Virus record (IMG/VR): IMGVR_UViG_3300045988_153867
Origin: a virus
Length of the DNA stretch: 46,037 bases
Strand: one strand, 5' to 3'
Made by a program: the position numbers and the translations under genes. The notes beneath the pieces are model-generated. The model saw only the letters and a list, made by a program, of their open reading frames with translations, ran no database searches and was not told the origin of the DNA. Positions 5,095 to 46,037 of this stretch are shown in pieces (position 1 is the stretch's first letter; every line of letters begins with the position of its first letter).

Positions 5095-5362
5095 TAAGTG
5101 GGCTTACAATAAAGCCAGACGCAGTAATCCGCTCACTATCCGAGCAAGTGATAAACCGTATGTGCATATATTTGGCTATGGCGTTCGCCGTATGATGGCA
5201 TATGATAGCTGCAATTTATCGTATGAATGATGCGGATAACTACCCATAGCCCCTACCGTGCGGCTAGCAGCAGTCGCATTGGTAGTGTCAAAACATCGCA
5301 TGGAAGCCTAGTAACGGGATAACATGCAAAGGTGAAATGTTCAAGTTTAGCACTTGGACACT

Positions 5363-5435
5363 GCCCGTGTAGCTCAGATGGCAAGAGCGATTGACTTTTA
5401 ATCAGTGGTCGCAGGTTCGAGCCCTGCCACGGGTA
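5363..5435 (+). tRNA. tRNA-Lys (anticodon UUU)
   Basis: Cloverleaf folded by hand. Acceptor stem is GCCCGTG/CACGGGT and the D arm is GCTC..GAGC. The anticodon loop is CTTTTAA and the T arm is GCAGG-TTCGAGC-CCTGC. Confidence 0.9.
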
Positions 5436-5590
5436 CGGCATAGATGGGGAACACCTATCCACGCTTAAAGGTGCGTGTGTTGTTTGGGTAATCCGGCGAC
5501 TGCCAGTCCTGCCGTTGGGGTGATACAGCGGCATATTTAATTGAGGTACTAACATGTTAAGCAGTAAATAATAGTGGAGAGTGCTTAAAA

Positions 5591-5890
5591 ATGAAATATA
5601 AAAAGAAACCAGTATCTGTAGAAGCATTTCGGTTTGATGGTGATTTAAAAGGAAGCGATGGCAAATATTATGTGCCAGAGTGGGCGGTAAAAGCATTTGA
5701 AGAAGGAATTTTGTACTTTGATGCCTTAACTCCAGATACTCCACCTATTGAATTGTTTATTAGAACTCTTGAAGGTACGATGCATGCGCCAGTCGGAAGT
5801 TATGTTATACAAGGAGTACGTGGAGAACTTTACTGCTGTAAAGAAGATATCTTCCTTGAAACTTATGAGCCTGTATTGGAGAGTGATTAA
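5591..5890 (+). CDS. Conserved hypothetical phage protein
   Basis: ORF track frame with a GGAGAG RBS region upstream. Confidence 0.6.
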   Translation: MKYKKKPVSVEAFRFDGDLKGSDGKYYVPEWAVKAFEEGILYFDALTPDTPPIELFIRTLEGTMHAPVGSYVIQGVRGELYCCKEDIFLETYEPVLESD

Positions 5891-26546: not shown

Positions 26547-26831
26547 TCAGAATCCATTGTTGTATCTATAAATTGCGTCATTTGCTTCACGGATAGCCGC
26601 AGCTTTTGCTTCTTGAATACGCTGGATATCATTGTTACAGTTTTCTACATATTTCTTTGCTTCTTCGACATAAAGTTCAACTTCATATTTGCTCGGATTG
26701 TAAGGTAAATATGAATTGAATTCTGGATACATTGATAAACTTAAATTAGATCCACCAAAAACATATGCAAACGCTATACTTGAACACCATAAAATAAAAA
26801 TTATAGAAATTACTAGAATCCTTTTAAACAT
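26547..26831 (-). CDS. Small secreted or membrane-anchored protein (moron)
   Basis: N-terminal signal/TM segment. AAGGAG sits 8 nt upstream. The region is AT-rich and on the reverse strand. Confidence 0.6.
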   Translation of the reverse strand: MFKRILVISIIFILWCSSIAFAYVFGGSNLSLSMYPEFNSYLPYNPSKYEVELYVEEAKKYVENCNNDIQRIQEAKAAAIREANDAIYRYNNGF

Positions 26832-26861
26832 TAATTTTTCTCCTTTAATATCTGGTTGGGT

Positions 26862-27272
26862 TTATATGCCTATATATTTCCCGTTGCCATCATCAACTAA
26901 TTTTAATAGATGAAAAAATACTTCTTCCCCTATAGATCCTGGAATAATAGGTTCTATTTTATAAAGTGGTTTATAAGAATCTTCTATTTGACCGTTTTTA
27001 TAGGCAATAATGTACAAATTTACTAAGGAAAAATCTTTTTTAAAAAAAGTAGTTTGTATTAAAATCTGTTTGTTTTCAGATGGTTCTACTCTTGCGACCC
27101 AGGCGGTTGCTTTTGTATCGTCAAATGTAATTGTTCCTCTATCTATAAAATAACCAAATTGGTTATCTGAACTTACCCAGCTCCAGCGAGCTGGATCTAA
27201 GTTATTGGCAACACATAAATTTGTGATTAAAGAAAATACAAGAATTAAAAATAATAAAATTATTTTTTTCAT
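26862..27272 (-). CDS. Secreted protein, possibly surface-adhesin-E-like fold (moron)
   Basis: Signal peptide MKKIILLFLILVFSLITNLCVA. The WSWVSSDNQFGYFIDRGTI pattern is present. The start was chosen at the ATG with a GAAGGGA RBS. Confidence 0.55.
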   Translation of the reverse strand: MKKIILLFLILVFSLITNLCVANNLDPARWSWVSSDNQFGYFIDRGTITFDDTKATAWVARVEPSENKQILIQTTFFKKDFSLVNLYIIAYKNGQIEDSYKPLYKIEPIIPGSIGEEVFFHLLKLVDDGNGKYIGI

Positions 27273-27313
27273 AATATCCCTTCTCTTATTATTTCTCACA
27301 ATTAACTTATTGA

Positions 27314-27883
27314 CTATATTCCTTTTGCACTACCGGTAAAACCTATAGCAGAAGTTTGACCTTTTGAATTTATTCCAAAAAATAATGCCCAAATCGGATT
27401 ATATTTATTATGATAGGCATACCAATAGGATACAATGCCATTATATTCTGCTTTAGTGTTTTTAATAATGGTTCCCGGAGTTCCATATTTAGAAACAATT
27501 AAATTTTCTGAAGAACCGATTGATATTCCTCTTATAGTTGATACGTTGGGCTTAGTGCAAATAATTTTATATATTTTACCAGAGTCATCTTTGTTTATAG
27601 TTGGCTTATCATTATAATTTAAAGTTATAATACCATTTTCAAATAATATAGTTGCTTCGCTACTTCTGGCAACACCGTCACTATAAATATAATTTTCTGT
27701 TAGAATTTCGCCTAAAATGCGTGAAGCATCGTTAATAGTGGTATATTTTTCTGCTTGTAACGGCCCGCAATTGATTAGAAATAAGTCATCTACATTGGTG
27801 CTACCAGCAGCAATAACTTTGGCAGATAAATTGAAAACAGATAAAAAGATAAAAGCAAAAATAACAAGTGTAATTTTTTTCAT
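27314..27883 (-). CDS. Secreted protein of unknown function (moron)
   Basis: Signal peptide MKKITLVIFAFIFLSVFNLSAKV. GGAAGGAG RBS is present. Confidence 0.6.
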   Translation of the reverse strand: MKKITLVIFAFIFLSVFNLSAKVIAAGSTNVDDLFLINCGPLQAEKYTTINDASRILGEILTENYIYSDGVARSSEATILFENGIITLNYNDKPTINKDDSGKIYKIICTKPNVSTIRGISIGSSENLIVSKYGTPGTIIKNTKAEYNGIVSYWYAYHNKYNPIWALFFGINSKGQTSAIGFTGSAKGI

Positions 27884-27911
27884 AAATAATGCTCCTTCCG
27901 TTTTTCACAAT

Positions 27912-27948
27912 TATATCACATTTATAGTTGATGTGATATAATATATTC
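27912..27948 (+). promoter_or_regulatory. Perfect 10-bp inverted repeat (TATATCACAT-N9-ATGTGATATA) overlapping an extended -10 (TGaTATAAT); candidate operator and promoter
   Basis: Read directly in the divergent intergenic region between 27883 and 27993. Confidence 0.5.
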
Positions 27949-27992
27949 GCAATATGCATACTTTGCTGATAATTTTTATAGGAGCGATGAAC

Positions 27993-28244
27993 ATGAGCGT
28001 AAGAGATCCTTTTTCTGGTTATGGAAGTATGAGCCTTTTTAAATCTTGGCCGTGGTTGGAGCCATATTTGTGTATAATGTTTGTTGTTTGTTTTATATAT
28101 CTTAAGTTTTTTTCAAAAGACGAAGATGAAATAATTATGATTATTTTAAAATCTCTGATTTTTCCTATAGGGATATTAGTTATGTTACCATTAATAATTT
28201 TAGGAAAAATATATTTTTTCTTTACTGGTAAAAACAAAGAATAA
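27993..28244 (+). CDS. Small membrane protein (moron)
   Basis: Two hydrophobic segments. ATG sits 8 nt after GGAG. The start codon is uncertain. Confidence 0.45.
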   Translation: MSVRDPFSGYGSMSLFKSWPWLEPYLCIMFVVCFIYLKFFSKDEDEIIMIILKSLIFPIGILVMLPLIILGKIYFFFTGKNKE

Positions 28245-29884: not shown

Positions 29885-30061
29885 ATGCAAAATTTTGTTG
29901 TAATCCAAAACGGTCAAGTTATAGGTTTCGCTAATACTATTAAAGACCTGAATGAAAAACTAAATGCTCTGAAAATTGAACATAAGCAGCTAATGCCGAT
30001 CATAAAAGAAAAAGGTATGATTCCTATTATAGAACAGGAGAGAGATTATGATAGGCAATAG
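29885..30061 (+). CDS. Small hypothetical protein
   Basis: ATG sits 8 nt after GGAGG. Confidence 0.5.
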   Translation: MQNFVVIQNGQVIGFANTIKDLNEKLNALKIEHKQLMPIIKEKGMIPIIEQERDYDRQ

Positions 30062-31196
30062 CGAAAATAGGATTATCTATAATGGTAACGGTGTAGCGAC
30101 AGAGTTTGGCTATTCTTTTAAGATATTGGAAAAGACCGATATTAATGTAGTACTTGTCGATCCTGATTTAAATGAAATTGCTCTAACAAAAGACTATTTC
30201 GTTGATATGGAAAAGTCAGTTGTTTTCTATCCGGGGTATTCGCCAGGAGCAGAACCACCAGAAGCAGAGCGACCTCCAGTATTACCAGAAGGCTGGCAGC
30301 TTGTCTTATATCGTGAGGTTCCCATAACGCAGGAATCTCAATTAGATACACATTGGCCGTTTAATGTTATTGAGGCAGCATTAGATAAACTGACAATAAT
30401 TTGTCAGCAATTATGGGATGGTGCAATAAGAGCAATTCGTTTATCAGATTCAGCTCCTACAGATATTTCCACAGTGTTACCACGACCTATGCCAAACGAA
30501 GGATTTTATTGGGACAAAACTGGTAAAAAACTTGTTTCCGGACCTAATCCTAAATTTGCTATGGAGCAGGCACAGGCGAGCGCTGAATCTGCAAAGAAGT
30601 CTGAAACAGCTGCTGCAGAAAGTGCTGGATCTGCTAAGGAAGATGCAGAAAAAGCAGAAGACGCAGCAGAGCGTGCAGAAGATATTTTACTTCGTTTTGA
30701 AAGCGGGACTATAACAAAAGAGTTTACGGCATCAGATAGCAGATGGACTGAAAGTAATGGCATGTGGCGTCTTACTATAGCAATGGGGAACAGCAGACTT
30801 ATTGGCGTCTATAAGGAAGTCAAAAAACCGCAGTATGAAATGGTACTTACTGGCGTATATATGGATTCAGTAAACACTATTATCGAAGTCCCCGAAAGAT
30901 TTACAGGCATCGTTATACTGGCGTCGCTGACTAAGAAAACCGGTGACAAAGTATATATCAAAAATTTTACTGAAGAAGATTTTACAAAGGTTGGCAGCGA
31001 TTCTGTACTGACCATATCTGCCGAGGAACACCAGGCAGGGAGCAGTCCTATCATCGTCAGCTTAACAAAGACCATTGATGGTGTTAGCTATCCTTATTAT
31101 GCTAATACTGGCGTAGATAATAACGGTAACGTTGTTATAAATGTGAGCGAAGCGTTCACAGGAAAAATAATTTTGGATGGAGGTTATTTACAATGA
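30048..31196 (+). CDS. Tail fibre protein with a T7 gp17-like N-terminal tail-attachment domain
   Basis: The N-terminal YNGNGVATEFGYSFKI...INVVLVD...LVLYREVPITQ...EAALDKLTIICQQL pattern fits. Two C-terminal domains of about 75 aa are present. Confidence 0.65.
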   Translation: MIGNSENRIIYNGNGVATEFGYSFKILEKTDINVVLVDPDLNEIALTKDYFVDMEKSVVFYPGYSPGAEPPEAERPPVLPEGWQLVLYREVPITQESQLDTHWPFNVIEAALDKLTIICQQLWDGAIRAIRLSDSAPTDISTVLPRPMPNEGFYWDKTGKKLVSGPNPKFAMEQAQASAESAKKSETAAAESAGSAKEDAEKAEDAAERAEDILLRFESGTITKEFTASDSRWTESNGMWRLTIAMGNSRLIGVYKEVKKPQYEMVLTGVYMDSVNTIIEVPERFTGIVILASLTKKTGDKVYIKNFTEEDFTKVGSDSVLTISAEEHQAGSSPIIVSLTKTIDGVSYPYYANTGVDNNGNVVINVSEAFTGKIILDGGYLQ

Positions 31197-32116
31197 CTGT
31201 AGAAAAAATTGGAACTGGAACGCAGCGTGAAAGAGATGCTGCGATAAACGCTAATTTTGAAGCGTTAGATACTGGTAAGCTTGATAAAACAGAAACTGCT
31301 GCTGACAGTAGTAAATTAGGTGGAGTAGCTGCTGCCAATTACGCAACTACTACTGCTATGACCAGTGCTATTGAAGAGGCAAAGACTGCAGTAAAAGATG
31401 AACTGATTGATGGTGCTCCTGCTACTTATGATACGCTAAAAGAAATTGCGGATTACATTGCAGAAGATAAAACTGGTGCAGCAGCTATGAATGAAGCTAT
31501 AGCAAACAAACTTGGAAAGACAGAAACTGCGGCAGCGGCTGCTAAGTTGACTACTTCTGCTGGCTCAGCAACACAACCGGTATTCTTTTCTAATGGCGTT
31601 CCTGTAGCTACGACATATTCTCTTGGTAAATCAGTACCGGCTAACGCATTATTTACCGATACTACTTATTCTGTAGCTACCACTACCGCAAACGGCTTAA
31701 TGGCTTCTGCAGATAAAACCAAGTTAGACGGTATTGCAGCTGACGCAAATAACTACAAACTTCCTGCTGCTACGGCAATCGCATTAGGTGGTGTAAAAAT
31801 CGGTTCTAACATTACTAATACAGACGGCACAATTAGTTTAACTAAAGCTAATGTTACGGCGGCGTTAGGTTACACTCCACCTTCTTCCGCTGCTACAGTA
31901 CTCAAAACTGAATTTACAGCAAGCAGTGCTAACTGGGGAACATTATCAGACGGCTATTATCCATTTACTTTAGCGGCGTCAGGAAAACACTTCCTCGGCA
32001 TGTATAGAACTAACGGCAGTACATATGAGAGTGTTATGGTTGACGCCGTTGAAAGTGGCAGTAATATTATAATTCAAAGTACGGAAAAGTTTGCCGGCTT
32101 TATTCTGACGATTTGA
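31193..32116 (+). CDS. Tail fibre protein 2
   Basis: Ala/Thr-rich with repeated KL(D/G)KTETAA..KL motifs. The C-terminal domain is homologous to those of the upstream fibre. Confidence 0.65.
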   Translation: MTVEKIGTGTQRERDAAINANFEALDTGKLDKTETAADSSKLGGVAAANYATTTAMTSAIEEAKTAVKDELIDGAPATYDTLKEIADYIAEDKTGAAAMNEAIANKLGKTETAAAAAKLTTSAGSATQPVFFSNGVPVATTYSLGKSVPANALFTDTTYSVATTTANGLMASADKTKLDGIAADANNYKLPAATAIALGGVKIGSNITNTDGTISLTKANVTAALGYTPPSSAATVLKTEFTASSANWGTLSDGYYPFTLAASGKHFLGMYRTNGSTYESVMVDAVESGSNIIIQSTEKFAGFILTI

Positions 32117-32127
32117 GGTGAGGAAAA

Positions 32128-32694
32128 ATGGGACTTGAGGGATTAGTAACAGTTGAAAAAATAAGAGCTGCAATCAATGCATCACTATCAGGTCTGAGTA
32201 ACTCTGATGCAACGATTACTATAACAAAGAATGATGGTACAACTAGTACTATTACCATTAACAATGTAGCTAATGCGACTACTGCAACAAAACTCGGAAG
32301 CAGCACTGTAGGCAGTGGTGTAAAGGCAATTTATCTTAATGCAGGTACGGCAACTGCGAGTAATAGTACTGTGGGGAACAGCAACACGCCGGTGTATCTG
32401 AATAACGGAACTTTTACAGCTTGTAGCTCAAGCATAGGTTCTGGTTGGACTGTTTCAAATGGGACAGCAGGTTGGGCACGAGAAAATACCACTGGCTTCA
32501 CCATCCAGTGGGGCGATACAACTACCTTTCCTCGCACTTTTACAACAGCGTTTCAGGTTGTAATGCAAGCTGATAACAATAAAGGTGAACCATTATATAA
32601 GAACCAAGTAACTGTAACATCTATCTATAACAATGGTTTCACCATTGGATCACCAGGACAAGGACAAAGGTATGTAGCGTTTGGCATAAGTTAA
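32128..32694 (+). CDS. Tail fibre tip / receptor-binding protein (currently expressed variant)
   Basis: The C-terminal GFTIQWG...FPRTF...YVAFG pattern is typical of fibre tip domains. It contains the left inverted repeat. Confidence 0.65.
   Translation: MGLEGLVTVEKIRAAINASLSGLSNSDATITITKNDGTTSTITINNVANATTATKLGSSTVGSGVKAIYLNAGTATASNSTVGNSNTPVYLNNGTFTACSSSIGSGWTVSNGTAGWARENTTGFTIQWGDTTTFPRTFTTAFQVVMQADNNKGEPLYKNQVTVTSIYNNGFTIGSPGQGQRYVAFGIS
32481..32511 (+). repeat. Left 31-bp inverted repeat (IR-L) inside the fibre-tip gene
   Basis: AGAAAATACCACTGGCTTCACCATCCAGTGG. Its exact reverse complement is at 32907..32937. Confidence 0.95.
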
Positions 32695-32936
32695 GTCAAG
32701 CCACAAGCATAAAGCCTACAAGGCTGTGAACCGCTCCAGCGATCATCATTGTAACCATTACATAGGCAAAAACTAATACTGGTATTACTAACACCTGTAA
32801 CAAATGTTTCGCAGTTGCTGGACGCTATAACATTTGCATAATACAAAGTTGAAAAACTTCTAGGATAAGTAATGCTTCTATATGTAGCATCAGTATTCCC
32901 TACCCACCACTGGATGGTGAAGCCAGTGGTATTTTC
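32691..32936 (-). other. Start-less alternative fibre-tip C-terminal cassette (silent in this orientation)
   Basis: 82 codons are open on the minus strand, in phase with the IR, with no start codon. It ends in a TAA that overlaps the + strand stop within TTAA. Confidence 0.7.
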
Positions 32937-32937
32937 T
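32907..32937 (-). repeat. Right 31-bp inverted repeat (IR-R)
   Basis: Exact reverse complement of 32481..32511. Confidence 0.95.
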
Positions 32938-32954
32938 ATGAAAAGGAGAACTAT

Positions 32955-33554
32955 ATGACTTACTTAATTAAATTCGATGAAACCGGTAGACGTGGGGAAA
33001 CCTATGTCGCCGAAGAAAAAACACAGGAAGAAATTACAGAACTGCTTGAAAAAGGTTTTGTACAAATTCCAGAAGAAGATTATCAGCTTATTGTCGGTAA
33101 TATTGATGGTCATGAGTATATACGTAAATCTGATGGAAGTTATAGTATATATGAACCTCCTACGCCTGACTTAGAAGAACTGAAGGCAAATAAACTGGCA
33201 GAGGTAGACGCTTGGACAGAAGGAAAAATCACCGGCGGTTTTACGTCTGAATGTAGTGGAGAACTTGTCCGTTACGACAGCGACAAGGATACACAGCTTA
33301 CAATGCAGGGTATAGCCTTGAACGTAAATACTGATCGCTTTGCTGTAGAGTATCCTGCAGGCTGCCCTGTGCGTGGTTACACAGATGGAAGTGCTGACAA
33401 AACGATATTCTATCTTACGCCGGAACAGGTGCTCGAGTGGTGCGCTGATTTATCTACCCATATAGGTACTTGTAAGCAAGCAGGATGGAGTAAACAGGCT
33501 GAAGTAAATGCAGCTCAAAGCAAAGAGGAATTGGATGCGATTATTTTAGATTAG
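32955..33554 (+). CDS. DUF4376-like fibre-associated protein (possible assembly factor)
   Basis: Positioned after the fibre genes. The KANKLAEVDAWTEGKITGGF pattern is recalled from DUF4376 proteins. Confidence 0.45.
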   Translation: MTYLIKFDETGRRGETYVAEEKTQEEITELLEKGFVQIPEEDYQLIVGNIDGHEYIRKSDGSYSIYEPPTPDLEELKANKLAEVDAWTEGKITGGFTSECSGELVRYDSDKDTQLTMQGIALNVNTDRFAVEYPAGCPVRGYTDGSADKTIFYLTPEQVLEWCADLSTHIGTCKQAGWSKQAEVNAAQSKEELDAIILD

Positions 33555-33565
33555 GCGGTGCAAAG

Positions 33566-33865
33566 ATGGTAGAAACAGTAATGGCCGCAATAACAATTTT
33601 TAGTTTTTTATTTGGTATCGCTGGCTTTGTGTTTAAGATATGGATAATTTCTCCGTTGTCAACGGCAATAGAAAATCTGCAGAAAACTGTTGATGCTTTG
33701 TTAAATACAATAAAAGAAGAACAGACCAAAGCTACAAATATGCAGATTGAGATTGCAAAAGTAGATCAGAGGGCAAGATCTGCACATAACAGGATTGATG
33801 AAGTTGGTGAACGGTTACTGTTGGTCGAAAACAAATGTAATAACTGTGCATGTAAGGATAAGTGA
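33566..33865 (+). CDS. N-terminal TM plus coiled-coil protein with a Cys-rich C-terminus (lysis-associated?)
   Basis: TM segment AAITIFSFLFGIAGFVFKIWII, a helical region, and C-terminal CNNCAC. Confidence 0.5.
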   Translation: MVETVMAAITIFSFLFGIAGFVFKIWIISPLSTAIENLQKTVDALLNTIKEEQTKATNMQIEIAKVDQRARSAHNRIDEVGERLLLVENKCNNCACKDK

Positions 33866-33870
33866 TATTC

Positions 33871-34203
33871 ATGTTTGAGAAAATAAAAAACTTAATAGTC
33901 AGTGCTAGAAATAAAGTAGCCTCAATGTCGCCAAAAATAATGGCGGTCATTGTAGGCTATTTTATTGCAGTCATTTTGCTGGTCTTTACTTATTATGCAG
34001 CTTGGCTTTACATGTGGCTGTGGTTAAACAAGATTGTTATGTCCGACTTGCTGGCGCTGATACGTGAGATTACAGGCCCCGCTATGGTCGCATTTGTGAC
34101 CTTTATCGCTACGAGTTTGGTCGATAAAGACGGTGATGGAGTGCCTGACAATTTAGAAAAGGAGATTGAGAGCAATGGTGACAAAAAGAATCACTTTAGA
34201 TGA
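33871..34203 (+). CDS. Holin candidate
   Basis: Two to three hydrophobic segments and a charged C-terminus. It lies immediately upstream of, and overlaps, the endolysin gene. Confidence 0.55.
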   Translation: MFEKIKNLIVSARNKVASMSPKIMAVIVGYFIAVILLVFTYYAAWLYMWLWLNKIVMSDLLALIREITGPAMVAFVTFIATSLVDKDGDGVPDNLEKEIESNGDKKNHFR

Positions 34204-34714
34204 GCTGCGACAGTTAGCTAAAAGAGCTAGAGGTAATATTGATAAGATCTATCTACACTGGTCAGCTGGTAATTATCACCAGTTTTTTAGTGACTATCAC
34301 CTAAACATTGACAGCGACGGCGCCATTATGGCGACCACAGATGATTTGACAGAATATAAAGCTCATACATGGCGGCGCAATTCTAGAGCTATTGGGATTG
34401 CTTTAGCTTGCTGTGTAGATGCTGTAGCTTATGCTGATGGTCGTGTCGATTTTGGAAATGTACCACCGACAGAGTTGCAGATAGATAGTATGGCGAAAGT
34501 TGTAGCTGTATTGTGTGAGGAGCTTGGATTGGACATTAATGCCGATACCGTAATGACGCATGCAGAAGCAGCAGACTTAGATGATTATGGCCCGGCAACG
34601 ACTTTTGAGCGTTGGGATTTATGGAAATTACCAGATATACCAGGCGACGGCGTGCTAAAGCTAGGCGGTGATGTTATTCGTGGCAAGGCTATCTGGTGGC
34701 AGCAAAACTGGTAA
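34175..34714 (+). CDS. Endolysin, N-acetylmuramoyl-L-alanine amidase (Amidase_2/PGRP type)
   Basis: IYLHWSAG...YH..ID.DG...HTWRRNSRAIGIALACC...VMTHAEAA motifs are present. Confidence 0.8.
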   Translation: MVTKRITLDELRQLAKRARGNIDKIYLHWSAGNYHQFFSDYHLNIDSDGAIMATTDDLTEYKAHTWRRNSRAIGIALACCVDAVAYADGRVDFGNVPPTELQIDSMAKVVAVLCEELGLDINADTVMTHAEAADLDDYGPATTFERWDLWKLPDIPGDGVLKLGGDVIRGKAIWWQQNW

Positions 34715-34885
34715 AAGTAGTTGTTGTAGAAAATGCAATACCTTTAATTTGAAGGTAGTTTTAAAGGTATATAGGCAATATGTTTACTGAATAAAGGTGT
34801 TAAATAGAAATGCGCTATTTTGAGTATTTTATTCGATAAAATATTCGCGAAAAACGTACAAAAATATTCGATTGAAAGGAGGCGA

Positions 34886-35017
34886 ATGGTAATGAGAAAA
34901 GTAATGACTTTTTTGAAAGAGGCGGCAATTGTAGTAAAAGAGCAGCCGGGGGTATGCTTTGCGATCCTGGTGCTGGGCTTTGCTTTGGGAGCTATGCATA
35001 GCTGGTTCGGTCTGTGA
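34886..35017 (+). CDS. Small protein with a C-terminal TM segment, 43 aa
   Basis: GGAGG RBS. Hydrophobic segment is VCFAILVLGFALGAMHSWFGL. Confidence 0.4.
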   Translation: MVMRKVMTFLKEAAIVVKEQPGVCFAILVLGFALGAMHSWFGL

Positions 35018-37801: not shown

Positions 37802-38252
37802 GTACGTGGAATACCTTGAAAAGATTGCCGGTGATCGTGAAAAAGAAAAAGAGCTTGTTGAAATAATCAGTGAAGCTCTTGAGAGAATCAAGAAGCATTG
37901 CCCCGATGAATTTTATGGAGCTATGTACAAAATCCATTGCTTGATCTGCGGCCCGCACTTTGATGACCGTTTAGCGGAGAAAGCTGTTTCTCATATGAAA
38001 AATGTCGATGGTACTCATGGTGAGCACTGGAGCATGGAGCAAACAAATTCTCTTGCTGCCAAGCATGATATCAAAGAAAAGGCTGACTTCTATTATGTAA
38101 TGAATATGATGCATAGTGACTACGCCGATGTCTTAGGCAGTGATGTAGGAACGTATGTAAAAATGGCTAAAGCATATATGGAAGATCCTGATGCAGCAGA
38201 GGGTAAAGTTTTCTGTACATGGTTGGGACAAATGCGTCGAAAAGAAGAGTAA
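37794..38252 (+). CDS. Conserved hypothetical protein (cargo cluster)
   Basis: ORF track frame. The DGTHGEHWSMEQT...YYVMNMMHSDY pattern is recalled from Firmicutes and phage hypotheticals. Confidence 0.55.
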   Translation: MHKYVEYLEKIAGDREKEKELVEIISEALERIKKHCPDEFYGAMYKIHCLICGPHFDDRLAEKAVSHMKNVDGTHGEHWSMEQTNSLAAKHDIKEKADFYYVMNMMHSDYADVLGSDVGTYVKMAKAYMEDPDAAEGKVFCTWLGQMRRKEE

Positions 38253-38500
38253 TGATGAAATTGTAACATTGTGTGTTGTGAGAAAAACCAGTTTAAATGT
38301 AATTTGTATGTAACAAAAAGCCCCGAAAATGGCTTGAATACGTTATGTGTAATTACCCTGCGAATAACAAATTTGATACAATGTTGCATAGAAAAATCCC
38401 ACGACCATGCGGTTTGTGGGATTTTTTAATTATCTGAAATGTCCATAAAAATCATTAAAATTTAGGGTGTATGTAACAAATATGTAACAGAATTCCTGAT
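38253..38500. promoter_or_regulatory. Probable attP region with repeated (T)ATGTAACA arm-type motifs and a hairpin at 38392..38427
   Basis: Non-coding stretch adjacent to int. TGTAACA occurs four times, twice in tandem at about 38470-38490. The hairpin is AAAAATCCCAC..GTGGGATTTTT. Confidence 0.5.
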
Positions 38501-39517
38501 TTAAATTTGATTTATAGCGTCTACAAGTTGCCGAATTGTCTTATGAGTGTAAACTTTTTCGGTGATATCGGTAGTAGCGTGTCCAAGTATTTTTTTGATA
38601 ATTTTATCTGGGACTTGAGCATTATCCAAAAGTGTTGCACAGGTATGGCGTCCATCATGGGGGTAGTGCTTTAGTTCTACAAGCTTCATTGCTGGAGCAA
38701 ATAATTTCCTTCTGAAAGTATCATACTCTACTTTTTTATTTTCATAAGTTAAAAGGTAGTCGTTATTTTGTTCATACAGCCTTTTGATAAATGGGAATAT
38801 TTTTTGTGCTATAGGAATAACCCTGTCTTTGCCAGCTTTGGTTTTTATTCCGCCTAACATATATCTTTCGTCAAGATGGACGTTACTATGCTTTAGTGTC
38901 ATTAACTCTGTAGGACGCATTCCGGTATAACATAGTATGAGCACAATTTGGATATTAATATCGTCTGCGTGAAGCCATAACATATTAAGTTCTTCTGTTG
39001 TAAATGGTTTGTGTACTTCACTTTTTATATCAGGAGGGAGCTCAATAAGAGAAGCGTAATTTTTATCAATTACATCATTGGCTAAACAATAATTAGATAG
39101 TCGATTAAAAAGTATTTTTATATTCTTTTTTGTAGCCCTACTTTTATTACAATCATCAACTATTTTCTGCATTGCAGATAGTTTTATATCTGGAAATGCC
39201 ATGTAATGAACTGGAGTACACCATGCAAAAGAAGAAGTATAAGCATGTGGTATTTTAATATCTTTGCTTATATATTTCTCATTACAAAAAGATTCATAAA
39301 TTTCCTTGAAAGTTGTTTTACGAGCAATCGGATTATATGGATTTTTGTTATACTCGGCCAGCATAGCAAGAGCTTCGTTACGTGTAGTATAATATCCTAA
39401 CACAGACATTAGCTGTTTACCTTCGTTATCGTAACCAGTCGTTATGCGAACCATAAAAGGCTTGCGTCTTTTCCCAGATAATTTTGTTATACTGCCATAA
39501 CCATTTGGTAGTCGCAT
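38501..39517 (-). CDS. int: Tyrosine integrase
   Basis: N-terminal LPNGYGSI.KLSGKRRKPF DNA-binding motif. Catalytic R (GMRPTEL), HxxR (HDGRHTCAT), and H...Y (GHATTDITEKVYTH) are present. Confidence 0.9.
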   Translation of the reverse strand: MRLPNGYGSITKLSGKRRKPFMVRITTGYDNEGKQLMSVLGYYTTRNEALAMLAEYNKNPYNPIARKTTFKEIYESFCNEKYISKDIKIPHAYTSSFAWCTPVHYMAFPDIKLSAMQKIVDDCNKSRATKKNIKILFNRLSNYCLANDVIDKNYASLIELPPDIKSEVHKPFTTEELNMLWLHADDINIQIVLILCYTGMRPTELMTLKHSNVHLDERYMLGGIKTKAGKDRVIPIAQKIFPFIKRLYEQNNDYLLTYENKKVEYDTFRRKLFAPAMKLVELKHYPHDGRHTCATLLDNAQVPDKIIKKILGHATTDITEKVYTHKTIRQLVDAINQI

Positions 39518-42266: not shown

Positions 42267-42443
42267 ATGGATAAATTTGATGATTTAGTATATTCGATTA
42301 GATATGAATTAGATGCAATGCAGGAAAATCTGAATAACACAGATGATTTGGACGGAAGCGAAGCTAAAGTAAATGTTTTGCTGAAATGGATTAAAAATAG
42401 CGCAAATACGATTGAAAATAAAATTGAAGATTGGGGCGTGTAA
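42267..42443 (+). CDS. Small hypothetical protein, 58 aa
   Basis: Translated by hand. GGAGG RBS is present. Confidence 0.45.
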   Translation: MDKFDDLVYSIRYELDAMQENLNNTDDLDGSEAKVNVLLKWIKNSANTIENKIEDWGV

Positions 42444-42445
42444 AT

Positions 42446-42934
42446 ATGAAACTTTATGAAATTAATCAACAATTAGAGCGGTTGCTAGAACTTGATACTG
42501 AAAGAATGGTAGATACTGAAACAGGTGAAATATTGACTGCCGAGGATATAGATCAGTTGAAGATGGATAGAGTAGAAAAGATTGAAGGCTGCCTTGTGGT
42601 TTACAAAAACAAAATGGCAGAAACAGCAGCCATTGAGGAAGAAATTAAAAGGCTGACGGAAAGAAAAGCCACCTTAAAAAATAAGGCGGAGTGGTTAAAA
42701 GGTTATGTAGCCTACGCTTTAAAGGGTGAAAAATTTGAGACTCCCAAAGGCGCAGTCAGCTACAAAAAAAGTGAGACTGTGGAAATTACCGATAAGGAGA
42801 AGCTGCCGACAGAATTTTTGAGAGTTGTTACATCAACATCACCTGACAAAGCGGCTATCAAGGCTGCGATCAAAGCTGGCAGTAAAATTGATGGGGCACA
42901 GGTAGTAGAGCATCAGAATGTGCAGATAAAGTGA
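42446..42934 (+). CDS. Gp157-family (siphovirus Gp157-like) protein
   Basis: Begins MKLYEINQQLERLLE..., has a coiled-coil region, and ends in a ..SYKKSETVEI.D...LP.EF pattern. It lies upstream of the annealase gene. Confidence 0.65.
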   Translation: MKLYEINQQLERLLELDTERMVDTETGEILTAEDIDQLKMDRVEKIEGCLVVYKNKMAETAAIEEEIKRLTERKATLKNKAEWLKGYVAYALKGEKFETPKGAVSYKKSETVEITDKEKLPTEFLRVVTSTSPDKAAIKAAIKAGSKIDGAQVVEHQNVQIK

Positions 42935-42944
42935 GGTTGAGGAC

Positions 42945-43601
42945 ATGATTGATATATATACAAACTTAGCAACCCCGCCTACAGATGCTTTGAAAACAAT
43001 CCAAGCAGGTAATCTAAGGGGAAAAAGTGATATAAACCCACAATGGAAGATTGAAGCCATTACTGCTCAGTTTGGTTTGTGTGGTATTGGGTGGAAATTT
43101 GAAATTTTAGATAAGACTATATATCCATTAGAGGATAAGCAAATATTACTGTATATGACGGTAGCTTTGTTTATCAAAAACGGTGATAGTTGGAGCGAGC
43201 CTATCATTGGTTGTGGAGGCGACTTCATTGTTCAAAAATACAAAACTGGACTTACAGCAAATGATGAAGCCTTTAAGATGTGTCTTACTGACGCACTTGG
43301 TAACGCTATGAAAAACATTGGCGTTGCAGCAGATGTGTACAGGGGGTTTTGCGATGGTAAATATAGCGTTCGAGAAGAACGGCAATCTGTTGAACCATCA
43401 ACCACTAAAACATCAAATAAAGCAGAAGCGCCTACACCTATAAACCAAACTAAGCCTGCGTTTCCTGACGAAAATACAGGACCACAATTTTTGATGTGTC
43501 AGGAATGTACGGTTGAAATTAGCCAAAAAGTACATGATTATAGCGTGCAGAAATTTGGTAGGCCGCTCTGTATGAAATGTCAGAAGGTAGCAGCAAAATG
43601 A
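42945..43601 (+). CDS. Rad52/Sak-type single-strand annealing protein with a C-terminal zinc ribbon
   Basis: INPQWKIEAITAQFGLCGIGW...NDEAFKMCLTDALGNAMKNIGVAADVY pattern. C-terminal CQEC...CMKC motifs are present. Confidence 0.65.
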   Translation: MIDIYTNLATPPTDALKTIQAGNLRGKSDINPQWKIEAITAQFGLCGIGWKFEILDKTIYPLEDKQILLYMTVALFIKNGDSWSEPIIGCGGDFIVQKYKTGLTANDEAFKMCLTDALGNAMKNIGVAADVYRGFCDGKYSVREERQSVEPSTTKTSNKAEAPTPINQTKPAFPDENTGPQFLMCQECTVEISQKVHDYSVQKFGRPLCMKCQKVAAK

Positions 43602-44125
43602 AAACTACGGTACAAGACCTTCAGCTGATTCAGACATGGCAGGGGGCAAGTGTTGTGATTCCACTTTCATCATCAGAGGCGGAAGAGGTCGCAGAATTAA
43701 AGAAAAAGGCTGACGATGGAAAACCATTGCAGTTTGAATTAAAAATCGTTAGAAAACAACGTAGCCTTGATGCAAATGCGGCATTATGGTTTTTGTTACA
43801 GGAAATGGCGGCTAAACTACGGACAAATAAAGATGCGCTATATCTTGAAATGTTGGGTAGATATGGAGTATTTACGCATATAATTGCAAAAGCTAATGCT
43901 GCAGAGCGATTTAAAGCTCAATGGCGTACTGTTAAGGATCTTGGCGAAGTTACTGTCAATGGGCAGACTGGTAAGCAGCTACAATGTTATTTTGGCAGTA
44001 GTACTTATAACACGCTTGAATTTAGTAGGTTGTTAGATGGAACGATTAATGATGCAAAGGAAATTGGTATAAACCTTATTTCCGATGCTGATAGGGCGCT
44101 TATGCTTGCAGAATGGGGCAAATAA
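43598..44125 (+). CDS. NinB/Orf-like recombination mediator
   Basis: The RSLDANAALW motif and the C-terminal LEFSRLLDGTINDAKEIGI pattern parallel lambda NinB. Confidence 0.6.
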   Translation: MKTTVQDLQLIQTWQGASVVIPLSSSEAEEVAELKKKADDGKPLQFELKIVRKQRSLDANAALWFLLQEMAAKLRTNKDALYLEMLGRYGVFTHIIAKANAAERFKAQWRTVKDLGEVTVNGQTGKQLQCYFGSSTYNTLEFSRLLDGTINDAKEIGINLISDADRALMLAEWGK

Positions 44126-45127: not shown

Positions 45128-45778
45128 ATGCTTGATATAGGCGATGTAGAGGCTGCGTTTGTGGTATGGCGAGCAGCTGGCTTAACTCCACCACCGATGA
45201 ATGATGTTCAGCGGGAAAACTTTATGGCAAAAACGTTGGAACAATACAAGTATACACAGGTCAATGATTGGGCGGAAGCTGTTGAGTGGGTGGCTAATAA
45301 CAATACGCGCTGGGCAACGTGGTTCGACATCAATACAGCGCTGTCTATAGTCCGGCAGAATAAAATCGGCGCAGAGAAGAAGGCTATTGAGCGTAATTCT
45401 AAAGCGGCAAACGAGTTTGTTAAAAAGTTGTTTGCTGATCTTGCTGCCGGTAAAACATTTGGCGAACTACGGCAGCCAATAAGCGATAAAGTTAGAGCTG
45501 CAGCAAAGAGGATTTTTCCTGATGCTGACGATAGCTTTATAAAGCGTAATTGCAGCGATATCAGCTTTATCGCAGACGTCGAACGAAAATGCGCTGAATG
45601 TATTAACACTGTTGATTGCCCATACAGCGGACATCAACCGTTTTTGAGAGTAGACAAAGAAAGCGGATTTACTTATGTGGTTGCTGATCGTGAGCGGTGT
45701 TATAAATATCATCCGTTAGTGCCTGATGTAGTACCAAAACGGTCAGCACGTCGTCAAGGGGATTTAGCTAAAGTTTAA
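45128..45778 (+). CDS. Hypothetical replication-module protein with a Cys cluster
   Basis: ORF track frame. The CAECINTVDCPYSGH motif is present. Confidence 0.5.
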   Translation: MLDIGDVEAAFVVWRAAGLTPPPMNDVQRENFMAKTLEQYKYTQVNDWAEAVEWVANNNTRWATWFDINTALSIVRQNKIGAEKKAIERNSKAANEFVKKLFADLAAGKTFGELRQPISDKVRAAAKRIFPDADDSFIKRNCSDISFIADVERKCAECINTVDCPYSGHQPFLRVDKESGFTYVVADRERCYKYHPLVPDVVPKRSARRQGDLAKV

Positions 45779-45791
45779 AGGAGCGGTAACT

Positions 45792-46037
45792 ATGAAAAAG
45801 TATGAATTAACAGCAGAGTTTATAGAAAAATGGGGCAAGAAATTATTTAGGATTAAGGCTTTAATTAGCTTTGGAAGTGTTGAAGTTGGTGAACTTGGTG
45901 GATATGTGGAAAAAGAAGATAACTTAGCGCAAGATGGCAACGCTTGGGTGTACGGCAACGCTAGGGTGTGCGGCGACGCTGAGGTGTACGGCAACGCTAG
46001 GGTGTGCGGCGACGCTGAGGTGTACGGCAACGCTAGG
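45792..46037 (+). CDS. N-terminal part of the hexapeptide-repeat protein (continues at 2..436)
   Basis: ATG follows AAGGAG and encodes MKKYELTAEFIEKWGKKLFRIKALISFGSVEVGELGGYVEKEDNLAQDGNAW, then the repeats. The frame is open to the window end. Confidence 0.7.
   Translation, partial: MKKYELTAEFIEKWGKKLFRIKALISFGSVEVGELGGYVEKEDNLAQDGNAWVYGNARVCGDAEVYGNARVCGDAEVYGNAR
45935..46037 (+). repeat. Tandem 18-bp coding repeats (same array as 1..180)
   Basis: Direct reading. Confidence 0.9.

Follow-up and report, generated by a model that had tools for sequence, protein, structure and literature searches.

How a phage can exchange the tip of its tail fiber by DNA inversion without an invertase of its own is the question raised by the viral sequence IMGVR_UViG_3300045988_153867 (IMG/VR; 46,037 nucleotides [nt], referred to here as the window, to which all coordinates refer). 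Invertible fiber switches are a textbook hedge of temperate phages between hosts, and to our knowledge, every well-studied switch of this kind carries its own invertase. A first-pass annotation, made from the letters of the window alone, had noticed two inverted repeats around the end of a fiber-tip gene and had read them as the borders of an invertible cassette with no invertase gene in sight. We compared this locus with its natural relatives, and the results make it very likely that the cassette is a real invertible fiber-tip switch. The features of the locus are collected in Table 1.

A repeat finder placed the two arms, each of 31 nt and fully complementary to the other (100%), at 32481-32511 and 32907-32937, with a spacing of 395 nt. 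Such a perfect inverted repeat in 46 kb is far beyond chance, since about 1e9 position pairs stand against 4^31 possible sequences. The left repeat (IR-L) lies in frame within the open reading frame (ORF) 32128..32694, which encodes 188 amino acids (aa). Its GAA codon begins at 32482, and the constant part of the gene comprises 128 codons that end in ENTTGFTIQW. Reading the minus strand from 32936, within the right repeat (IR-R), gives ENTTGFTIQW again, followed by 71 codons (WVGNTDATYRSITYPRSF...ACGLT) and a stop at 32693-32691, which overlaps the plus-strand TAA (32692-32694) within TTAA. The 395 bp between the repeats are filled entirely by these two convergent tip-coding ends. Both the perfect repeats, with IR-L in frame, and the open minus-strand frame with its overlapping convergent stops had been described in the first-pass annotation, and the repeat finder, the ORF, and the translation agree with that description.

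The annotation had also predicted that inversion of 32512..32906 would swap the last 60 aa of the protein for an alternative 71 aa. For this prediction, we compared assemblies from different samples, and both states were found in nature, together with the right-hand repeat. A protein search returned proteins of 188 to 191 aa, like that of the window, and many 199-aa proteins whose C termini match the silent frame of the window, P0044 being identical over that part. Six loci that encode P0044 (L001 to L006) carry 31-bp repeats identical to those of the window, and their inner 395 bp are 99% identical to the reverse complement of the window segment and 32% identical to its forward sequence. A scan of viral contigs in IMG/VR with the core pattern of the repeats alone (see below) yielded 35 contigs, of which 34 have paired sites. 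When these 34 were oriented by their flanks, the tip encoded by the silent frame of the window (type WVGN) was the expressed one in 21 and the other tip in 13. The repeats are carried by 46 related contigs, with the segment in either orientation. Contig breaks, considered as a possible sign of mixed orientation within one sample, gave no clear pattern: L009 ends exactly at IR-R, but L089 and L090 break elsewhere and have low coverage.

Four intact tip pairs occur across these loci (GDTT/WVGN, as in the window, GDQT/WVGN, GNGD/WVGN, and ATWS/WVGN), each of them including WVGN. Both states were seen for the pairs with GDTT, GDQT, and GNGD; for the ATWS pair, the silent cassette is intact in L065. 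Every locus has exactly two sites and two cassettes. Loci L048 and L054 show 0 differences over 1,836 nt and are opposite in orientation, and several other opposite-state pairs differ by one base, suggesting that inversion is frequent relative to point mutation. In the 46 loci with perfect repeats, 92 of 92 cassettes, expressed or silent, are intact and of fixed length, and both tips are under selection. A different picture is seen in L066 and L067, which carry a fifth tip type, GNPS. There, a C-to-T change in the core center of IR-L cuts the repeat to 21 bp, and the WVGN cassette, which is silent, is disrupted by an internal deletion and a stop; this is the expected look of a locked switch.

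To which protein family do the two tips belong? The profile of the tip family matches the R1/R2 pyocin fiber foot (6cxb [E = 7e-5], 6cl5, and 6ct8). In the AlphaFold (AF2) model of the WVGN form, a beta-sandwich at the C terminus is predicted with confidence (predicted local distance difference test score [pLDDT] of 84 to 97 over residues 107 to 199), and Foldseek matched this model to 6ct8, 6cl6, 6cxb, 6cl5, and 4mtm (pyocin R1/R2 fibers and AP22 gp53) with E values of 2e-6 to 2e-5. The notion that the minus-strand frame encodes a fiber tip is in line with this structural comparison. The model of the tip A form, as expressed in the window, has a mean pLDDT of 47 and is unusable for fold comparison. 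Both tips are assigned to the gp53-like/R-type pyocin fiber-foot family (PF21882), a prediction that draws on the model and the profile for tip B and on the profile for tip A; the relative P0026 has a weak PF21882 match. The switch point coincides with the start of the foot domain. Tip A and tip B would bind different receptors. The WVGN tip is unusually rich in cysteine (5 Cys in 71 aa), and the ratio of nonsynonymous to synonymous polymorphism (pN/pS) of WVGN cassettes is 0.23. Among ten distinct GDTT (tip A) cassettes, pN/pS is about 1.6, compared with this 0.23; the difference could be noise, given the very low divergence, or could reflect diversifying selection on tip A.

In order to place the switch in its genome, we examined the remaining genes and the ends of the window. 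Pfam matches include terminase subunits, a T7-type head-tail connector, a GP7 capsid protein, gp13- and gp14-like proteins, an internal protein of 2,183 aa, the fiber module (30048-33554), lysis genes, and an S24 repressor; a 922-aa protein corresponds to the nozzle according to the annotation of relatives. The single tyrosine integrase (38501-39517) lies at the prophage end and adjoins the 3' end of the host rpsR gene in 5 independent contigs, and the matching attP junction is present in the window. This attP region spans 38252-38500, with its core at about 38357-38375, where the prophage copies join the last rpsR codons (TTACC-TGCGAATAA). Both ends of the window (45764-46037 and 1-436) consist of 18-nt tandem units that encode a YdcK-type beta-solenoid repeat protein, and when the two ends are joined, a single gene is almost recovered, apart from a small overlap or frame offset. 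The integrase/rpsR junctions, the attP site, and the ends inside the beta-solenoid gene together indicate a circularly permuted, complete temperate phage genome, with a predicted virion architecture of the T7-like type. The host is predicted to be Phascolarctobacterium faecium, a Negativicute, and one source labels a homologue as a protein of this species. A circular-form junction, with the integrase next to a DUF7841 gene, also occurs inside a 253-kb contig (L014) and suggests either tandem prophages or an assembly join.

The fiber switch is not confined to podovirus-type phages like that of the window. The loci L007 and L008, which lie at the same host site, belong to myovirus prophages that encode baseplate J, W, and I proteins, a tape measure, and a PAAR protein. 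Their repeat variant, v2 (AGAAAATTCCACTGGATTTACCATCCAGTGG), is again exactly 31 bp and perfect and differs from the variant of the window, v1, at three positions that are mirrored in both arms (28/31 bases are the same). The inner 479-bp segments of L007 and L008 are reverse complements of each other (99.6%). Podovirus-type and myovirus-type phages have in common only the fiber tip, the DUF4376 protein, a holin-like protein, and an amidase. A further arrangement is found in L003 and L005, whose repeat is identical to that of the window and whose prophage right end is a different one, next to tRNA-Arg; the repeat occurs in three different attachment contexts. The DUF4376 gene follows IR-R in every invertible locus and is missing from the noninvertible locus L011, and its product is probably a fiber assembly factor or a distal fiber protein common to both tips. 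Loci L011 to L013 represent a third phage type, also a myovirus, with 96% identity to the window from 30675 to about 32480. Past this point, the fiber gene of L011 has a fixed, WVGN-like, noninvertible tip and no silent cassette, and in L011 to L013 a CBM_5_12 protein follows the fixed tip in place of DUF4376. This mosaic indicates that the fiber-tip domain boundary is also a hot spot of mosaic exchange.

Each repeat holds a near-palindrome of 23 bp, CCACTGGMT-TYACC-ATCCAGTGG, with a 9-5-9 layout. The dyad is perfect in v2 (CCACTGGAT TTACC ATCCAGTGG) and has one mismatch in v1. The same core can be read as 8-7-8 (CCACTGGA TTTACCA TCCAGTGG), which is a reading of the letters, as cleavage positions are not given by sequence. 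The axis of symmetry runs through a base, not between two bases. Within the window, CCACTGG-N9-CCAGTGG occurs only at these two places, and 100 dinucleotide shuffles gave 0 matches. The encoded peptide does not force this symmetry, since L011 encodes the related ENSTGLTVQW as GAAAACAGTACAGGTTTAACTGTACAATGG, with other codons and no dyad, and random synonymous recoding of the repeat peptide produced a stem of at least 7 bp in only 1.6 to 5% of trials. The boundaries of the repeat are the same (31 bp) in v1, in v2, and in unrelated phage backbones.

A recombinase crossover site typically consists of symmetric arms that flank an asymmetric center. Tyrosine recombinases such as lambda Int and Rci have a 7-bp overlap (the spacer of Rci is 7 bp), and serine invertases have 2-bp cores. 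The odd-length center, with its axis through a base, would fit a tyrosine recombinase better than a serine invertase. A comparison with gix/hix found no 12-2-12 site in the repeats and no match to the half-site. The internal dyad had already been proposed as a recombinase core; its absence from L011 and its rarity under synonymous recoding speak for that proposal, and its extent had to be corrected to the 9-5-9 form. Searching viral contigs for the symmetric arms with any 7-bp center returned the same phages as pairs plus about 21 single matches, which are probably due to chance, and revealed no new site variants and no multicassette shufflons. In representative bacterial genomes, the core pattern gave 10 single matches in unrelated taxa, about the chance expectation.

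Which enzyme, then, acts on this site? We searched about 40 ORFs of the window with Pfam models and all six-frame ORFs of at least 80 aa with phmmer, using Hin and Gin sequences that were judged adequate as homology probes. None of the about 40 ORFs had a Resolvase match in Pfam, and there was no Hin- or Gin-like ORF at E values of up to 10 in the window and 57 loci or at up to 0.01 in 2.1 Mb of related loci. No recombinase was found within 10 kb of the cassette in any locus, the only tyrosine recombinases being the integrases at the prophage ends. In the myovirus prophage, which we tiled on IMGVR_UViG_3300030031_000174 (L036, L096, L129, L183, and L189) except for 2.7 kb at the far end of the contig, likely host flank by comparison with L007, the only recombinase is a 408-aa integrase, 25% identical to that of the window. 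These searches agree with the earlier statements that the genome has no serine invertase and that the tyrosine integrase is its only recognizable recombinase, and they point to the lack of a dedicated flipping enzyme in both the window phage and the tiled myovirus prophage.

Three other candidates were considered and rejected. The two minus-strand ORFs at 26862-27883, one of which has the size of a Hin-type protein (189 aa), have signal peptides, no Pfam or PHROG match, and the look of secreted or lipoprotein morons. DUF4376 as a hidden recombinase has no relative of solved structure and is annotated as a tail protein; we treat it as a fiber component. A diversity-generating retroelement is at odds with the Pfam scans, which gave no reverse transcriptase match, and with the repeats, which are inverted and identical and do not form template/variable pairs.

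We favor, as the probable explanation, site-specific inversion by a recombinase that acts in trans and is probably of the tyrosine type. With no recombinase in cis in either phage type and few genes shared between them, the enzyme would most probably be supplied in trans, from the host chromosome or another resident element. It would exchange strands at the near-palindromic core, between symmetric arms of 8 to 9 bp and across an asymmetric center of 5 to 7 bp (TYACC). The symmetric arms would let two copies align either way, and the asymmetric center alone would enforce inversion over deletion. Depending on the orientation, the constant part would be fused in frame with either tip A (60 aa) or tip B (71 aa, WVGN), with the DUF4376 gene staying outside the segment and presumably serving both tips, and the outcome would be mixed phage progeny with two receptor specificities. 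The enzyme could be of a known global-invertase type or of a type not recognizable as a serine or tyrosine recombinase. That one recombinase, encoded by the bacterium or by a resident element, acts in trans to flip the tips of two or more unrelated phage families, so that the cell sets the host-range ratio and the fiber module is a portable switch, is a plausible but more tentative proposal. Several points weigh against this explanation. The case for a trans-acting enzyme is drawn from what the phage sequences lack, and the core site is present in no Phascolarctobacterium genome of the representative-genome scan, which gave no other target loci pointing to an enzyme. The evidence for both orientations is between assemblies and not within one clonal population; a large share of the contigs comes from the IMG/VR source 3300045988, probably a pooled data set, in which identical sequences of opposite orientation are not assignable to one sample. 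The difference in receptors is a prediction, and the model of tip A has low confidence. Finally, one of the three mirrored differences between v1 and v2 lies outside the core, which a fixed central crossover could not produce and which indicates that some homology-driven conversion also acts on the repeats.

This last point leads to the main rival explanation, in which homology drives the inversion itself, with host RecA or the annealing and recombination proteins of the phage acting on the 31-bp repeats during replication and selection keeping a short inverted duplication. The window encodes a recombination module at 42431-44125, consisting of Sipho_Gp157, a weakly NinB-like protein, and a protein of 218 aa whose C terminus bears a zinc ribbon and which probably anneals single strands, all of which could act on the 31-bp homology, and Red-type systems work on homologies of 30 to 50 bp. 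The lack of an invertase in the window, in the tiled myovirus prophage, and in the 2.1 Mb of related loci is what this process would predict, the mirrored differences need gene conversion, and the decay of the silent cassette alongside a single repeat mismatch in L066 and L067 fits a requirement for homology. However, a 23-bp near-perfect palindrome that the protein does not impose is of no use to homologous recombination, and the 31-bp boundaries are identical across v1, v2, and unrelated backbones. A length of 31 bp is close to the minimum that RecA-type recombination needs, yet sequences without any difference have been found in opposite orientations, and the myovirus behaves in the same way with different replication and recombination genes. 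We consider purely homology-driven inversion unlikely on balance. The integrase of the window, as the only recognizable site-specific recombinase in the genome and a member of the class with which the core architecture is compatible, might double as the invertase. Its target, however, is the 3' end of rpsR, the best local alignment of the repeat with attP scores 8 (a score equaled by 43% of shuffled repeats), the near-identical repeat flips in a myovirus prophage with an integrase only 25% identical, and L003 and L005 carry the identical repeat with a different right end; a role for this enzyme is very unlikely. The annotation had left the integrase, a host enzyme, or something unrecognized as possible catalysts, and of these, the host enzyme gains and the integrase loses from the comparison. 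The last alternative dispenses with an active switch and regards the arrangements as old, fixed forms spread by exchange of fiber modules between phages. Such exchange clearly happens, and every observation of both orientations comes from assemblies of different samples. Against it stand three independent tip pairs, two repeat variants, and two phage architectures, all with both states, as well as sequences that are identical over 1.8 kb and differ in orientation alone, and the state of the silent cassettes, which are undamaged in all 46 loci that have perfect repeats, decay being confined to loci with a broken repeat, so that we give it hardly any credence. Inversion by a recombinase in trans remains the explanation we prefer.

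The locus resembles several known systems without belonging to any of them. With the G segment of Mu, the C segment of P1, and the P segment of e14 (inverted by Gin, Cin, and Pin), it shares a segment bounded by inverted repeats inside a tail-fiber gene, two C termini arranged tail to tail, and a constant N terminus. In those phages, inversion changes the host range. The comparison with Mu and P1 drawn in the first-pass annotation holds for this type of outcome, a host-range switch, and fails for family membership. Mu (Gin/G), P1 (Cin/C), e14 (Pin/P), and p15B (Min) have an adjacent serine recombinase, whereas the window phage has none, adjacent or elsewhere. Their site of 26 bp is built from two 12-bp half-sites and a 2-bp core, compared with a 23-bp palindrome with an odd, asymmetric center here. 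A Mu/P1-type segment is 3 to 4 kb long, with the chaperone genes U/U' inside, in contrast to about 0.4 kb and a single DUF4376 gene outside the segment, and the present phage differs further in its Negativicute host and T7-like virion.

Shufflons such as Rin and the Rci-sfx system of R64 likewise invert variable C-terminal cassettes at short repeats onto a constant N-terminal part, and their enzymes are tyrosine recombinases, the class suggested by the core architecture here. They have a dedicated flanking recombinase and several cassettes per locus, whereas the present loci have no flanking recombinase and two cassettes each, with five tip types across the population. The Rin shufflon was described in Bifidobacterium prophages, where the tyrosine recombinase exchanges the variable C-terminal cassettes of a receptor-binding gene whose N-terminal part is constant (Mavrich et al. 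2018, PMC6109161). The same work reported a second inverted locus in bifidophages without a flanking recombinase and proposed an invertase in trans, which its authors noted as unreported in phages until then (PMC6109161). This recombinase-less locus is the nearest precedent, but it is far less documented, as it concerns genes of unknown function and a repeat of 8 bp in two genomes, whereas the switch described here has perfect 31-bp repeats with a palindromic core, identified fiber-foot domains, and both states represented across dozens of loci, and it is shared by two unrelated types of phage. Inversion of a segment between inverted repeats by a recombinase whose gene lies elsewhere in the genome is also known from Mpi of B. 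fragilis, RecV of C. difficile, and orphan or intragenic invertons (Chanin et al., bioRxiv 10.1101/2023.03.11.532203), and many invertons have no assigned enzyme, as here. The present locus shows the features of an orphan inverton, namely, a segment flanked by inverted repeats, found in both orientations, and no recombinase in cis. Whereas those enzymes act on host promoters or genes, the segment flipped here belongs to a phage structural gene, which travels on mobile phages of different families. Literature searches found no account of fiber inversion in P. faecium phages, and a megablast search of deposited phage genomes with 30000-35000 gave no match.

Table 1. Features of the fiber module and the invertible segment in the window
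Feature	Position	Strand	Evidence
Tail-fiber/tailspike N-terminal adaptor protein, 382 aa, first gene of the fiber module	30048..31196	+	PHROG tail/tail-fiber families match residues 5-124
Fiber shaft protein, 307 aa	31193..32116	+	Pfam Phage_head_fibr; several PHROG tail-fiber families
Fiber-tip gene as assembled, 188 aa (constant part plus tip A, GDTT type)	32128..32694	+	Homologues of 188-191 aa with 88-95% identity; family profile matches R1/R2 pyocin fiber foot
Constant N-terminal coding part, common to both protein forms	32128..32480	+	Identical or near-identical N termini in 188-aa and 199-aa proteins
IR-L, 31-bp left inverted repeat, in frame as (R)ENTTGFTIQW	32481..32511	+	Same in all v1 loci
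Core near-palindrome of IR-L, CCACTGGCT TCACC ATCCAGTGG, proposed crossover site	32489..32511	.	Dyad analysis; not in noninvertible L011
Invertible segment, 395 bp, all coding on one or the other strand	32512..32906	.	Exactly reverse-complemented between identical repeats in L001-L006 and many IMG/VR contigs
Tip A cassette, 60 codons plus stop, expressed in the window	32512..32694	+	Silent partner in loci of the W state
Tip B cassette (WVGN type), 71 codons plus stop, silent in the window, without a start codon of its own	32691..32906	-	Expressed elsewhere as 199-aa proteins P0044, P0015, and P0021
IR-R, 31-bp right inverted repeat; core palindrome at 32907-32929	32907..32937	-	Repeat finder, sequence
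DUF4376 protein, 199 aa, just outside the switch	32955..33554	+	Pfam DUF4376; phrog_1348 'tail fiber protein'
Tyrosine integrase, sole recognizable recombinase of the window	38501..39517	-	Pfam Phage_integrase

Additional features of these genomes concern cargo and gene order. A low-GC island at 26547-28244 (about 30%, versus 40% elsewhere) lies between the gene for an internal virion protein and the fiber module. It contains three minus-strand ORFs (94, 145, and 189 aa) with N termini resembling signal peptides or lipoproteins and without family matches, which are probably lysogenic-conversion or exclusion morons. At the corresponding position, relatives carry other cargo (pRha, Bro-N, and ANT genes). 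Defense- or stress-like cargo was seen in the myovirus prophages, with NA37 and RelA_SpoT genes in L066 (1626-3701) and a KwaB-like (Kiwa) protein in L129 (5374-6291). The gene for the giant internal protein and that of its 766-aa neighbor are located upstream of the fiber module in the window, while their counterparts (with a neighbor of 680 to 684 aa) are located downstream of the lysis genes in the closely related podovirus-type loci L001, L002, L004, and L006. A tRNA-Lys(UUU) gene is present at 5363-5436, and the 163-aa minus-strand ORF that overlaps it (5253-5744) is probably spurious.

The switch described here is reduced to two repeats and two tip-coding ends, and it evidently still flips in podovirus-type and myovirus-type phages that infect a common bacterium of the human gut. 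Fiber proteins of 188 aa and 199 aa, which would appear in metagenomes as strain variants, would represent two states of a single genome. Should the enzyme come from the host, the host range of these phages in the gut would depend on a host gene, and annotation pipelines that look for an invertase would miss such switches. Since the system is small, defined by its sequence, and abundant in public data, the missing enzyme is directly searchable by experiment.

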